From the IMG/VR virus record IMGVR_UViG_2548876941_000009: a stretch of 7,178 nucleotides of DNA. One strand, 5' to 3'. The translations under genes were made by a program, and so were the position numbers. Of this stretch, positions 3,691-7,178 are shown piece by piece. The stretch's first letter is position 1. Each line of letters starts with the position of its first letter. This DNA is from a virus. Its lineage: Duplodnaviria > Heunggongvirae > Uroviricota > Caudoviricetes. The notes beneath the pieces are model-generated. The model worked only from the letters and a program-made list of their open reading frames with translations. It did not search any database and had not been told where the DNA came from.

Positions 3691-3730
3691 TATTTTTCAC
3701 CTCTTTAGTGTAATTGCTTATTTTCAAATT

Positions 3731-3797
3731 CGTAGAAGCACACTCAGCAATCAGAGGTGAAGAGTCTGACTGAACAAGAACCTGCCAAGTGTGCTTT
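3731..3797. promoter_or_regulatory. Long-spaced inverted repeat upstream of the 234-aa gene, with a degenerate match to the 74-bp repeat arm
   Basis: Perfect 9-bp arms AAGCACACT (3736-3744) and AGTGTGCTT (3788-3796) separated by 43 bp. Plus-strand CGTAGAAGCACAC (3731-3743) resembles the CGTAGCACAC arm of the 74-bp repeats. Confidence 0.3.
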
Positions 3798-3806
3798 TAT
3801 GAATTG

Positions 3807-3841
3807 AAAAAAAGCCCTAAACATAATCTGTGAAGGGCTTT
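3807..3841 (-). terminator. Putative intrinsic terminator
   Basis: On the minus strand, stem AAAGCCCU/AGGGCUUU (plus 3834-3841 pairing 3811-3818) with a 15-nt loop, followed by a U-run (plus A-run 3807-3813). Confidence 0.5.
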
Positions 3842-3905
3842 GGAGGTTTGCTTATAACGTTAACGAAGTTTCAGGAAAACTTTCTTTAAAAGCTCTTAAA
3901 GAAAC

Positions 3906-3926
3906 GCCCTAATCATGAGTTAGGGC
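3906..3926 (-). terminator. Second hairpin (GCCCUAA/UUAGGGC, 7-nt loop), possible weak terminator or RNA structural element
   Basis: Perfect 7-bp stem. On the minus strand it is followed by GUUUCUUUAAGAGCUUUU. Shares the GCCCTAA core with the 3811-3841 hairpin. Confidence 0.3.
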
Positions 3927-4103
3927 AAAGCTGTAAAGGATTCAATAATGAATGAACAAGAGTACTTTTTGATATAGCCTATCTAGTGTGGGCTAAATAG
4001 GCCATGACGAAAAGCATTGCACCTTTCCAACTCAAAACAACTATCATTGATGTAGAACGACTAATAGTTTAATTCAAGGAGAATTGCCCTCCCCATACAT
4101 ACA

Positions 4104-4132
4104 ATTATGTCATGCTCAAGGTTGTTTGTCAA
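4104..4132 (-). promoter_or_regulatory. Sigma70-like promoter on the minus strand
   Basis: Read on the minus strand: TTGACA (plus 4127-4132), 17-bp spacer, CATAAT (plus 4104-4109). Predicted start near plus 4097. Confidence 0.4.
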
Positions 4133-4155
4133 CAACTTTTAACAGATTGGTAACA

Positions 4156-4233
4156 TCAATTATTATTTGCGGAGTTACCAACCAGACAGCCAACAAATAG
4201 CCCTAGCAGCGTCCATAATACAATTAACGTCAT
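4156..4233 (-). CDS. Putative 25-aa hydrophobic peptide (MTLIVLWTLLGLFVGCLVGNSANNN)
   Basis: Its ATG overlaps the TAA stop of the 107-aa gene (TAATG, plus 4231-4235), suggesting translational coupling. Single predicted transmembrane-like segment. Absent from the ORF track because it is below the length cutoff. Confidence 0.35.
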   Translation of the reverse strand: MTLIVLWTLLGLFVGCLVGNSANNN

Positions 4234-4556
4234 TAGTGAATCCTCACAGAATCCGCAACCAAATTATTGTCAGCGTACAAAATTGCTATAGCCGCCTTGA
4301 GATATTGTTCAGGGCTAACGCTGTATTTATTCGTTTCTTCGATAACAAGCCTTTTCATGTTTGAGTCGGTAACGGGAAACATAAAACGTGGGTCACCAGT
4401 TTTAATTCCCTGAATAAAATCTTCAATTACTTCTGAGTTCTCAGCCATTAGCTTTAACAGCCTGTCAAAGTCAATACTAATACCTGCATCAGTGAAGCTT
4501 TGCACCATCATAGCAGTGTCGTCATCAACCATAATTCGCATTGGGTAATTGTTCAT
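4233..4556 (-). CDS. Hypothetical acidic protein (107 aa)
   Basis: ORF with SD GAGGA 8 nt upstream of the ATG. Net acidic, including a DDD run near the N-terminus. No family recognised. Confidence 0.65.
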   Translation of the reverse strand: MNNYPMRIMVDDDTAMMVQSFTDAGISIDFDRLLKLMAENSEVIEDFIQGIKTGDPRFMFPVTDSNMKRLVIEETNKYSVSPEQYLKAAIAILYADNNLVADSVRIH

Positions 4557-5361: not shown

Positions 5362-5694
5362 TTAAAATCCTTCTGCTTGTGCGTACACGTCAAATTCAAA
5401 GTCTGGCTCACTGGTTGTAAGACTGATATTACCAACGGTAATATGATGCTCGACAATACCAATTAACTTTGCGCACATCACAGCAAGTAATGCGCAATAG
5501 GCATCGCTTGGTAACTCATGGCTTAACCTGGTTGCCTGACGCTGGAGATGGTTTGTCACGGTAGCTGAGTTAATTTCATCAAGATTCTTTAGAAGATAAA
5601 ACAATTTCTTGTTGTATTTTGGGTGCCCCCTCACTTCTGCAAAATCCGATAAGAATGTCGTCAAGCTTGCTCGGTAATTGCTCGTAGCTGTCAA
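5362..5694 (-). CDS. Hypothetical protein (up to 110 aa), start codon uncertain
   Basis: Longest frame begins with TTG at 5694 with no obvious SD, and overlaps the 3' end of the 112-aa ORF by about 116 nt. The frame is needed to fill 5362-5578 in an otherwise tightly packed operon. Confidence 0.45.
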   Translation of the reverse strand: MTATSNYRASLTTFLSDFAEVRGHPKYNKKLFYLLKNLDEINSATVTNHLQRQATRLSHELPSDAYCALLAVMCAKLIGIVEHHITVGNISLTTSEPDFEFDVYAQAEGF

Positions 5695-5917
5695 AGTTAG
5701 CCAGATAATTCTTGATGCTGTTCTTTGTTGTTTTGCGTACTGACATATAACGACTCCTCGGTGTAATTGCCCGAATTACTTCGTCAATGCCTTTGCGTTC
5801 TGCTCTGGTGAACTTAGGTGCTTCGTGGCTGGTGGGGGAGTTTGTGTAAGCGTAGGAATTGTATCTGTTACGTTGTCTCGATGCCTGAAGCATCGCTCTA
5901 AATTCTGCATCTCTCAT
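5579..5917 (-). CDS. Hypothetical basic protein (112 aa), first gene of the operon
   Basis: ATG at 5917 preceded by AAGGA 8-9 nt upstream and by a promoter about 45 nt upstream. Arg/Lys-rich N-terminal half. Confidence 0.6.
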   Translation of the reverse strand: MRDAEFRAMLQASRQRNRYNSYAYTNSPTSHEAPKFTRAERKGIDEVIRAITPRSRYMSVRKTTKNSIKNYLANFDSYEQLPSKLDDILIGFCRSEGAPKIQQEIVLSSKES

Positions 5918-5967: not shown

Positions 5968-5996
5968 ATACTAGCATTTTCAAAGGCTAATGTCAA
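5968..5996 (-). promoter_or_regulatory. Sigma70-like promoter for the minus-strand operon
   Basis: Read on the minus strand: TTGACA (plus 5991-5996), 17-bp spacer, TAGTAT (plus 5968-5973). Confidence 0.5.
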
Positions 5997-6002
5997 GCAT
6001 TT

Positions 6003-6032
6003 TTAACAATTTAGTAACATCTGTGGTATAAT
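6003..6032 (+). promoter_or_regulatory. Divergent sigma70-like promoter with extended -10
   Basis: TTAACA (6003-6008), 18-bp spacer, TGgTATAAT (6024-6032). Sits back-to-back with the minus-strand promoter, the two -35 elements 6 bp apart. Confidence 0.55.
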
Positions 6033-6054
6033 GGGTTTATGGGGAGAGTAAAAT

Positions 6055-6399
6055 ATGAGGCGTGGCTATCGAGAATGGCCGCATGGTTATTGCATTGCAC
6101 ACAGACCTCTTCAATCGCTCTGTAACGAGTTAAACGGCCTCTTCAGGTCAACTATAAGGTCAGGTACTTTTTTGTGCCAGAATGCGATTGAGAGCGTCCT
6201 ACAAGGAAAGCTAATGGTAAACCTCCCTGAACTGGGGTCACCTGATGTATGGGCTGGTGGAGGTATTGGACTGATTGCAGGTCTGCTACTCCGCTATTTC
6301 ATCGTCAGAGTGTTTATCGTGTTCAGATTGTTTGGTCGTGAATGGTCATTTGACCTCAAGGACAGGACCCGAACAGACAACCACACAGAACCCCGTTAA
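6055..6399 (+). CDS. Hypothetical protein (114 aa) with one hydrophobic, transmembrane-like segment; could instead be the 5' part of a non-coding transcript
   Basis: ATG at 6055 preceded by GGAG(AG) at about 8 nt and by the strong promoter at 6003-6032. Sequence has the hydrophobic stretch GGGIGLIAGLLLRYFIVRVFIVFRLF but odd composition (Cys/Trp/His/Arg-rich N-terminus). Confidence 0.4.
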   Translation: MRRGYREWPHGYCIAHRPLQSLCNELNGLFRSTIRSGTFLCQNAIESVLQGKLMVNLPELGSPDVWAGGGIGLIAGLLLRYFIVRVFIVFRLFGREWSFDLKDRTRTDNHTEPR

Positions 6400-6490
6400 A
6401 CTCCCTTCAAAACCCCTGTACGAGATGACAGATAGAAGTCTATGTTATAGGGGTATCTTTAGCATTTTGCGCTATCTATTAAAAAATAGC

Positions 6491-6520
6491 TTGACAGAAC
6501 CAGAAAGCTGCATCTATAAA
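6491..6520 (+). promoter_or_regulatory. Sigma70-like promoter
   Basis: TTGACA (6491-6496), 18-bp spacer, TATAAA (6515-6520), preceded by an A-tract (6480-6486). Confidence 0.35.
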
Positions 6521-6526
6521 GCATTC

Positions 6527-6900
6527 ACCTCTCTGACAGTGATTTCTAAAAGTTCTTATTTTTCAATTAGTTGTAATTAGCCAATATAATAGCTGTTCAG
6601 CTTCTTCACAGGGAAACTTCAGAGGCATTCTTAACCGTCCACTAAGTGGGAGAAGAGCGACATCCCAGAAAGGGAAGCTCCTTTCTAATTGGTATTGTTA
6701 CCAATCCCTAAACCGACTTCTTAACCCACCCTTACGTTATTCGTTCACAGTGTCGATAAGTGGTTTTGCCCTCTGTTTCTGTTATCATCGGGCTTACCTT
6801 GTCAGGGCTTTGAAATGTCCCTGTAACTCCCTCTTAACGGGAGAGAAAGAACATAGTGACCCCAAGCGAAGCGCCCCTCTAAAAAGATTTTTTAGCTATT
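6527..6900 (+). ncRNA. Candidate structured non-coding region of unknown class
   Basis: No plausible ORF beyond short peptides. Noticeably GC-richer by eye than the phage genes. Many local hairpins, for example AGAAAGG/CCTTTCT (6668-6687), ATTGGTA/TACCAAT (6689-6706), CCACT/AGTGG (6640-6650), CAGGG/CCCTG (6803-6823), CTCCC/GGGAG (6828-6844). Confidence 0.25.
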
Positions 6901-7081
6901 TTGTTTAAAGGCACATCAAACGATACATTTTGTTGATTTTGGTCAAAGACAAAAGCATTGACAAAATGGTAAGATTGTTCACATGACCTTACTTAACAGA
7001 CTTTTAAGAGCTTTTGAAACAGCCTGTTTAACAAGGTCACTACCTACGGTTCTTCGTTTCCCTTCTTTCTAGGTAGTCATC

Positions 7082-7135
7082 TGTTAAGTATCTTTTCAGA
7101 TATCTCTTTGTTAAGTATCTTTTCAGATATCTCTT
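7082..7135. repeat. Perfect tandem duplication of a 27-bp unit, TGTTAAGTATCTTTTCAGATATCTCTT, with palindromic core AGATATCT
   Basis: Units at 7082-7108 and 7109-7135 are identical. A partial third start, CTGTTAAG, follows at 7143-7150. Confidence 0.8.
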
Positions 7136-7178
7136 ACACTCACTGTTAAGATGTAACACACCTTCGGTATATCGTTAC

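Follow-up and report, generated by a model that had tools for sequence, protein, structure and literature searches.

The locus and the island that carries it

We analysed a 7,178-nt stretch of viral DNA (IMG/VR record IMGVR_UViG_2548876941_000009, here called the window) and in particular the block at its right end, positions 6400-7178. A reading made from the sequence alone had described this block as hairpin-dense DNA poor in open reading frames (ORFs), a candidate for an RNA, an origin of replication or a packaging site, or else flanking DNA of the host. We found that the block is non-coding and conserved, lies inside a chromosomal island of Escherichia coli of ~11.7 kb, and is homologous to the terminal region of Felix O1-like phages (Felixounavirus). 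The island has an unannotated stretch of 1.4-2 kb; its first ~780 nt form the block, and the window ends inside that stretch. Loci compared with the window carry L-numbers; L010 is an E. coli locus 99% identical to the window and L015 is APEC O18.

In gene order, the large serine recombinase of the island is followed by the gene for a 'phage baseplate protein' and the tape-measure gene. Then come about eight small genes for hypothetical proteins (an HNH endonuclease among them in some copies), a divergent 61-aa membrane ORF and the 1.4-2 kb unannotated stretch. The cargo after it varies: it is an AP2/HNH protein, a Dam methylase or an invertase-like serine recombinase of 183 aa. The block thus has the 61-aa ORF on one side and the small recombinase or the cargo genes on the other. 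The large recombinase at the island edge has Resolvase, Recombinase and Zn_ribbon_recom domains. On the minus strand of the window we found a truncated gene (<1-355) and a 693-aa tape-measure gene (518-2599; PHROG 4036, E 1e-77), from which small minus-strand ORFs continue up to 5917. Divergent sigma-70-like promoters lie upstream of the block at 5968-6032, and the 61-aa ORF (6214-6399, plus strand, one predicted membrane helix) reads from the one at 6003-6032. Conserved coding sequence ends with this ORF, which the non-coding stretch follows; the ORF is conserved in all relatives (in L010 from position 11805), and its equivalent in E. coli genomes is a hypothetical protein. The tape-measure gene and one hub-like gene were the only recognisable virion genes in the ~11.7 kb island, in which no capsid, terminase, portal, sheath or tube gene was recognised.

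A match to the block was present in 422 of 5,426 complete E. coli genomes, exclusively on chromosomes, and a plasmid search with the block gave no match. Copies of the block also turned up in E. albertii, among IMG/VR contigs and in 40 contigs from metagenomes. Among six island loci inspected there were four insertion sites, at tonB/yciI, yecE, mdtG and dinB/lafU. Since the block lies inside a mobile island at four chromosomal sites, the suggestion that it is host flanking DNA is excluded.

The description of the block as ORF-poor was borne out. Only two ORFs overlap it, both of them mechanical calls (6275-6580, TTG start, 101 aa; 6750-6908, GTG start, 52 aa). Across 42 distinct relatives the longest ORFs vary in strand, position and length and none is conserved, and no RefSeq feature lies under the block match in any of the best-listed E. 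coli genomes (best 30 of 422). One hidden gene was considered, a 44-aa TTG-start ORF on the minus strand (~6731-6865, start about 6865) that is preceded by GAGGGG, recurs in both haplotype families of the block and is intact in 17 of 40 distinct relatives. We rejected it as a gene and regard it as probably non-coding, because its frame shifts between haplotypes and it is broken in 23 of the 40, and in the window as well, where it is frameshifted. The block had also been called GC-richer than its surroundings. There is a local rise to 0.45 at 6601-6900, but it is weak, as the neighbouring bins have 0.39 (6301-6750) and 0.40 (6751-7050). The window overall is AT-rich and phage-like.

Homology to Felix O1-like phages and their terminal repeat

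In Felixounavirus, the gene that comes directly after the tape-measure gene has 77-91% nucleotide identity to the island baseplate gene. Island and phage also have in common the junction of these two genes and the 3' end of the tape-measure gene. Felix O1-like phages are virulent, and therefore an integrase island with two helper-type tail genes fits a satellite and not a prophage remnant. As in phage satellites, we found an integrase of its own at several sites, no autonomous set of virion genes, and genes and sites of the helper lineage. We read the element as a satellite-like island and not as the end of a prophage. The island has the look of a previously undescribed satellite of Felix O1-type phages, and none of the papers searched links a satellite to Felixounavirus. 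Putative E. coli satellites that have tape-measure and baseplate-hub genes and lack most tail genes, a subset of them with a serine recombinase, have been described (Barth, Dunham and Seed, PMC10055350). These elements resemble the island in being chromosomal in E. coli and in pairing a tape-measure gene with a baseplate component. They differ in that they also have capsid, decoration and RepA_N genes, none of which was found in the island ORFs tested, and four island-bearing genomes that we checked were not among the supplementary entries of that study examined. That study gives no description of the non-coding regions of its elements.

The genomes of Felix O1-like phages are packaged with exact repeats of about 581-608 bp at their ends (PMC4837284, PMC8303462). 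In the record of phage vB_EcoM_D4 both ends have the same 581-bp sequence, which corresponds to positions 222-812 of phage vB_EcoM_DE7 (L057), within non-coding DNA. This one record gives the boundary positions of the direct terminal repeat (DTR) used here; the UAB_Phi87 record starts in the tRNA region and is not end-oriented. DE7 has about 2 kb of non-coding DNA across its record ends, packed with the octamers CTTAAAAG, CTTGTTAG and CTGTTAAG; motifs of this type occur at 38 per kb in the first kb of DE7 versus about 2.5 per kb elsewhere. Phages of the T7 type likewise have dense arrays of 7-8-nt motifs next to and inside a short exact terminal repeat. The T7 motif is CCTAAAG, and the function of the array is unsettled even there; the Felixounavirus motifs (CTTAAAAG, CTTGTTAG or CTGTTAAG) are different and the phages are unrelated. 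The island has nine TGTTAA-type motifs in the 500-nt bin that holds the cluster at 6993-7149, versus 0-3 per 500 nt elsewhere.

We built a profile from four phage terminal non-coding regions and ran it with nhmmer against nine island loci including their host flanks. All matches with E < 5e-3 fell between the 61-aa ORF and the downstream recombinase, and all were in reverse orientation. One marginal match, also reversed, lies just past the small recombinase gene (E 0.0053, L015 11156-11242). The place equivalent to window 6965-7106 matched the DTR interior (DE7 473-584, extending to 271 in L013) in L015, L004, L002, L011, L014, L013, L001 and L010, with E from 6e-9 to 5e-3. A second match, some 550 nt past the end of the window, covers the right part of the DTR, its boundary and its flank (DE7 631-951; E down to 1e-14). 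L014 has kept the right-boundary sequence TACC|AAGCAG.TATAC, and L013 and L010 have kept part of it. In related islands an element from the left of the phage DTR lies between the two DTR matches, also beyond the window end.

Other comparisons gave the same picture. A six-sequence alignment of island relatives and phages over the DTR-interior segment has 61 invariant columns. When the non-coding stretch of L014 was searched with blastn it matched 163 phage records; among the matches listed nearly all were Ounavirinae and none overlapped an annotated feature. Of ~62 exact or near-exact matches of 13-23 nt between the non-coding stretch and the phage, counted by hand, 12 fell in the phage terminal 2 kb, versus 2.4% expected from genome length.

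Features of the block and their conservation

The left end of the block is marked by a terminator-like hairpin, ACCCCTGTA...TATAGGGGT (6412-6454), which follows the 61-aa ORF and is the only convincing terminator within the window. Because T-rich runs flank it on both sides it is probably bidirectional. Its loop has a 17-nt insertion in the window lineage. In L011 and L014 the hairpin is flipped to its exact reverse complement (CCCCTGTACGAGATGGTATAGGGG versus CCCCTATACCATCTCGTACAGGGG) with the structure preserved.

Positions 6461-6600 are strongly conserved and have no phage counterpart. This part holds the promoter-like motif of the sequence-only reading, which we found as reported (plus strand; TTGACA at 6491-6496, an 18-nt spacer, TATAAA at 6515-6520). 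In relatives the -10 element reads TATCAA; the motif is missing from our consensus promoter scan because its -10 lacks the terminal T. The same part holds a ~95-nt unit, single in the window and in two tandem copies in most relatives (copy number 1-2). The island-specific conserved unit ACAGTGATTTCTAAAAGTTCTTATTTTTCAATTAGTTGTAATTAGCCAATATAAT (6536-6590, plus strand) has identities of 0.77-0.83 to relatives and ends in TTCAAT (6562-6567)-N17-TATAAT (6585-6590), which by eye reads as a putative promoter.

Two hairpin modules follow. Module b1 (6636-6690, plus strand) consists of CCACTAAGTGG and then GGGAG...CTCC around CCC-AGAAA-GGG, and module b2 (6827-6843) is CTCCC-TCTTAAC-GGGAG. Both loosely resemble the leaders of DE7 early genes, b1 the 5' leader hairpins. 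In DE7 80000-85310 at least 8 early genes have a near-identical leader, ATCAACGGGGAGGGAATGACCTTCCCCACTAAGTAAAACCCTTAAACTAGGAGATTC, after promoters of the TTGACA/TAAATT type. Beside b1 lies a mini-hairpin insert, ATTGGTATTGTTACCAATCCCTA (6688-6712), that is present in some relatives and absent from others; it has a 91% match at DE7 94-116, left of the terminal repeat, and a second copy in the opposite orientation in L012. The most variable segment, 6712-6860, occurs as two haplotype families and yields no consensus structure in RNAalifold. It contains module b2 and the hairpin at 6803-6823, of which the loop TTTGAAA is conserved and the stems differ.

The most strongly conserved part is a near-invariant AT-rich core of 107 bp (6861-6967), with identities of 0.88-0.99 to 38 other distinct relatives; around 6941-6965 this conservation is inflated because the metagenome relatives were fetched by a 25-nt pattern from there. 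The core contains a GCGAAGC mini-hairpin (6866-6872), a CTAAAAA/TTTTTAG hairpin (6879-6895) and an imperfect palindrome of 43 bp, CATTTTGT...ACAAAATG (6926-6968), in which GACAAAA is repeated at 11-nt spacing. No phage counterpart of the core was found. The core is presumably a protein-binding site.

From 6965 to 7106 (minus strand) the block is the reverse-oriented homolog of the helper DTR interior (DE7 about 470-590; D4 238-358). Its stem-loop at 7034-7082 is present in both haplotypes and in the phage; the stems differ and the loop is common, reading TCTTATCGTTCCCTT in relatives and TTCTTCGTTTCCCTT in the window. Motifs of the TGTTAA(G) type, which fill the phage terminal region, cluster at 6993-7149, in the CTTAACA orientation at 6993-6999 and 7028-7034 and in the TGTTAAG orientation at 7081, 7108 and 7143, with CTTAAAAG at 7001-7008. 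A perfect tandem duplication of 27 nt, TGTTAAGTATCTTTTCAGATATCTCTT x2 (7082-7135, plus strand), is private to the source of the window: the repeat is single-copy in all relatives (95% gap there), and the 99%-identical E. coli matches are 27 nt shorter. The block ends at the window edge with a small hairpin, GTAAC-(ACC-TTC-GGT)-GTTAC (7153-7178, plus strand). Its stem occurs in fully compensated variants, GTAAC/GTTAC in 7 distinct sequences, GATAC/GTATC in ~23 and GAACC/GGTTC in 9; two recombinants break one pair.

An imperfect 19-nt direct repeat, CCCCGTTAAACTCCCTTCA / CCCGTTAAATATCCCTTCA, brackets the block almost exactly. Its copies, at window 6391-6409 and at L010 12760-12778 just beyond the window end, are 768 nt apart and conserved in relatives. 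The repeat resembles the left boundary of the phage DTR (GCCCCCTTAACA), on the strand opposite to the other phage-derived pieces.

The short inverted repeats that had been noted are all in place, but only some of the hairpins exceed chance. They are CCACTAAGTGG (6639-6649), AGAAAGG/CCTTTCT (6667-6686), ATTGGTA/TACCAAT (6688-6705), CAGGG/CCCTG (6803-6823), CTCCC/GGGAG (6827-6843) and AGGTCACTACCTA/TAGGTAGTCATCT (7034-7082). The local folds that stand out against shuffled sequence are 6405-6475, around the terminator (z = -2.56), 7030-7090, around the stem-loop (z = -2.96), and 7075-7178 on the minus strand (z = -2.94). The folds of 6596-6700 and 6800-6910 are at the level of shuffled sequence (z -0.1 to -1.2). 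By count, the block has 15 short inverted repeats, the other non-coding stretch of the window (3700-4478) has 20 and tape-measure coding DNA has 9. A long-range pairing of a perfect 16-nt inverted repeat (6834-6849 with L010 12752-12767, a short way past the window end) was rejected since by eye it is lost in L001, L002 and L004.

Packaging and other readings of the block

Our data suggest that the block is the proximal half of a non-coding cis-acting region of an island that appears satellite-like toward Felixounavirus. The reading that we favour, tentatively and at somewhat less than even confidence, is that the block mimics a helper terminus at the DNA level and is used to hijack Felixounavirus packaging. 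The composite would run from the bidirectional terminator through the promoter-like repeats and hairpin modules and the 107-bp core to the reverse copy of the DTR interior from ~6965. Upon helper infection the island would be excised and replicated, its DNA would show helper-terminus sequences to the Felixounavirus terminase, and the terminase would cut this DNA for packaging into helper-derived particles. Satellite lifestyle, helper identity, packaging function and the role of the core are all inferred here. Among the options named by the sequence-only reading a packaging site is the best supported, through the homology to the Felix O1-like DTR region at the right end of the block and downstream of it, but the match of the window alone is not significant.

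A broader proposal, which we hold as possible but doubtful, is that the island carries a split and rearranged copy of the helper DTR region and belongs to a family of widespread E. coli satellites parasitising Felix O1-like phages. On the minus strand the order would be the right half of the DTR with its boundary and right flank, the left-flank element, the left half of the DTR and then the island core. In an excised circle or a concatemer, left-end-like and right-end-like sites would then bracket nearly the whole 11.7 kb genome, and cleavage by the helper terminase at these sites would release satellite DNA of unit length. These proposals and the alternatives below are not mutually exclusive, and our estimates for them need not sum to one.

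Several observations weigh against a packaging role. The window sequence alone gave no significant match to the phage profile, and blastn of window 6000-7178 against phages found nothing, the phage homology appearing only through profiles and relatives. The homology of the window to phage is thus transitive, because it rests on relatives 80-87% identical to it. Most of the block (6400-6965), including both of its best-conserved parts, has no phage counterpart, and a phage source sought for the second haplotype family of the DTR-interior segment was not found. The order of the phage-derived pieces is rearranged and differs from that in the phage terminus; some 550 nt separate the best boundary homolog from the window end, and no convincing copy of the left DTR boundary was found in the islands. 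Neither did we see an excised, circular or packaged form among metagenome contigs of 11-12 kb, all of which have host flanks and no terminal overlap. Finally, the function of the Felixounavirus terminal region is uncharacterised (PMC3185647), and therefore the copied sequences could serve replication or transcription.

The proposed use of a helper terminus would resemble that of other satellites. P4 uses the cos site of P2, and cos-type SaPIs use the cos site of their helper. Like P4 and SaPIbov5, the island is a small integrative element with few virion genes that carries a copy of a helper DNA-end sequence. It differs in that its presumed helper is virulent and has an exact DTR of ~581 bp, not cos or headful packaging, in that the copies are split, inverted and interleaved with island-specific sequence, and in being known from sequence alone.

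Felix O1-like phages are widely used in Salmonella and E. coli typing, biocontrol and therapy. On the packaging reading, a compact satellite directed at these phages would be present in about 8-10% of complete E. coli genomes, and it could limit the phages and move DNA between strains. The block would then be a recognition handle and offer a direct route to the still undefined packaging signals of Felixounavirus. Detailed knowledge of satellites that exploit virulent phages comes essentially from one pair, PLE and its helper ICP1 in Vibrio cholerae, and the island would be the first satellite to exploit a phage that packages with a short exact terminal repeat. Even without a packaging role, the 107-bp core and the phage-derived pieces mark strongly constrained sites.

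PLE has a large non-coding region that contains its origin and the small RNA SviR. Like the island, PLE has a large serine recombinase as integrase, a virulent myovirus helper (presumed for the island) and non-coding DNA on the kb scale in which cis-acting sites and RNA genes are presumed to lie. In contrast to PLE (for its replication see PMC7145576), the island has no RepA_N initiator and no iterons, and it has tape-measure and hub genes, for which PLE is not known.

Transcription of the block is plausible, though we consider it rather unlikely that the block acts through one or several non-coding RNAs of the island in the manner of SviR. A plus-strand RNA of ~300 nt could run from TTCAAT-17-TATAAT (6562-6590) to a hairpin and U-rich tract at 6866-6905, and a minus-strand RNA of ~500 nt could start at TTGTCA-18-TAAATC, a phage-early-like promoter within the core (6964-6935), and end at the bidirectional terminator (6454-6412). 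The whole block folds better than shuffled sequence, more so on the minus strand (z = -3.88) than on the plus strand (z = -1.97). The terminator hairpin keeps its structure even when flipped, the hairpin at 7153-7178 has three compensated stems and a UUCG-like loop, and several pairs of the stem around 6866-6905 vary only between G-U and G-C, which fits a plus-strand RNA.

The searches for known RNAs were negative. The window had no Rfam match at E<=1, all Rfam matches of the full stretch in L010 were far under gathering thresholds, and ARAGORN found no tRNA or tmRNA in the window or in L001-L003. By these searches a known structured RNA (Rfam family, tRNA, tmRNA or RNase P) is excluded for the block. 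RNAalifold on 41 sequences (456 columns) gave -15.9 kcal/mol with a covariation term of -1.66 and 3 of 50 pairs compensated, and consensus folds of sub-blocks gave 0 to -7.5 kcal/mol on either strand. Modules b1 and b2 fold no better than shuffles, the best-conserved parts are invariant and not covarying, and the promoters are weak or read by eye, with the minus-strand -10 mutated to AAAATC in the window. Antisense control of the phage early leaders by a plus-strand RNA was rejected, as the complementarity is at shuffle level (z -0.68); a minus-strand signal (z -3.1) arises because the b modules resemble the leaders in sequence, not from antisense design. Two small hairpins have compensated or flipped variants; consensus structure and covariation are weak. 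The maintained hairpins fit protein-recognised DNA and short RNA hairpins equally well.

About 220-430 nt past the window end (L010 12973-13183) we observed a TTGACG-16-TATAAT promoter, a GGT-rich element of ~100 nt made of NNGGT pentamer-like repeats, and a strong terminator. The GGT-rich element has an intergenic homolog by the Felixounavirus DNA ligase gene (DE7 44011-44117, E 1e-8), with up to 89% identity in Shigella phage Silverhawkium. The unit is a candidate small RNA shared by island and phage, and from it RNA genes appear to occur in the unannotated stretch.

We regard it as improbable that the near-invariant core and its flanks form the replication origin of the island, to be activated by replication proteins of the helper or the host. 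In favour are the invariance and AT-richness of the core, its 43-bp palindrome, its GACAAAA repeat at 11-nt spacing and its DnaA-box-like motif, TTGTTCACA, motifs that were picked out by eye. As a satellite the island would need to replicate, we see no other candidate for an origin, and the copied phage terminal sequences could include a phage origin. However, no Rep, RepA_N or primase was found in any island ORF tested (Pfam, PHROGs), so that no initiator gene is recognisable, and there is no family-wide iteron array. In the phage, convergent transcription units flank the terminal region, a position where termini would be expected and not an early origin. An iteron-type origin in particular was rejected: the single tandem array seen (27 nt x2) is peculiar to the window, the ~95-nt unit occurs in 1-2 copies and there is no initiator gene.

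It is very unlikely that the core palindrome and promoter-like repeats are an operator or promoter of island regulators, with the phage-like pieces as functionless decaying remnants. A palindromic invariant core is typical of operators, candidate regulators exist in a ribbon-helix-helix-like ORF of 92 aa and a helix-turn-helix ORF of 128 aa (weak Pfam matches), and the phage-derived pieces are rearranged, with one haplotype lacking a phage match. Yet these pieces are kept in every island examined, at 70-87% identity and at four insertion sites, and the right-boundary sequence of the phage is preserved. Moreover, no conserved gene lies downstream of the core, the broken 44-aa minus-strand ORF included.

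An invertible segment was rejected since all examined loci are colinear through the stretch, with no orientation polymorphism, and the module ATTTCTAAAAGTTCTTATTTTTCAAT has no second island copy within 3 mismatches. As in Hin/Gin/Pin systems, a serine recombinase of 183 aa that scores as a DNA invertase (L010 13388-13939; PHROG 125, E 1e-58) adjoins the stretch, and a 19-nt imperfect inverted repeat brackets 1.2 kb. In contrast to these systems, no island locus has the stretch reversed, and islands without the 183-aa recombinase keep the block.

Other parts of the island vary as well. In APEC O18 the small recombinase gene and the integrase are reversed, at the other island end. L018 (metagenome contig QZLR01001205.1, 1-2400) is a degenerate copy that has lost the tail genes and the small ORFs, with the integrase gene abutting the non-coding stretch; a further deletion lies between modules b1 and b2, and its junction, considered as a trace of inversion, looks like ordinary decay. 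In the window a 1-nt insertion at ~5626 (C5 for C4; minus strand, within 5362-5917) splits a 184-aa gene, undivided in L010, into two overlapping ORFs (5362-5694 and 5579-5917); because of this split the leftward operon begins with a pseudogene in the source of the window. A second unannotated, ORF-poor island stretch at 3691-4232 exceeds the block in short inverted repeats (20 against 15 pairs) and has motifs of the GCTCTTAAAG type. Finally, a repeat of ~70 nt lies directly upstream of the baseplate gene (431-500) and of the tape-measure gene (2608-2677). It is 86-96% identical between copies and to relatives and carries CTGTTAAG and ACGTAAAA, which are also motifs of the phage terminus. This repeat is possibly a helper-responsive promoter.

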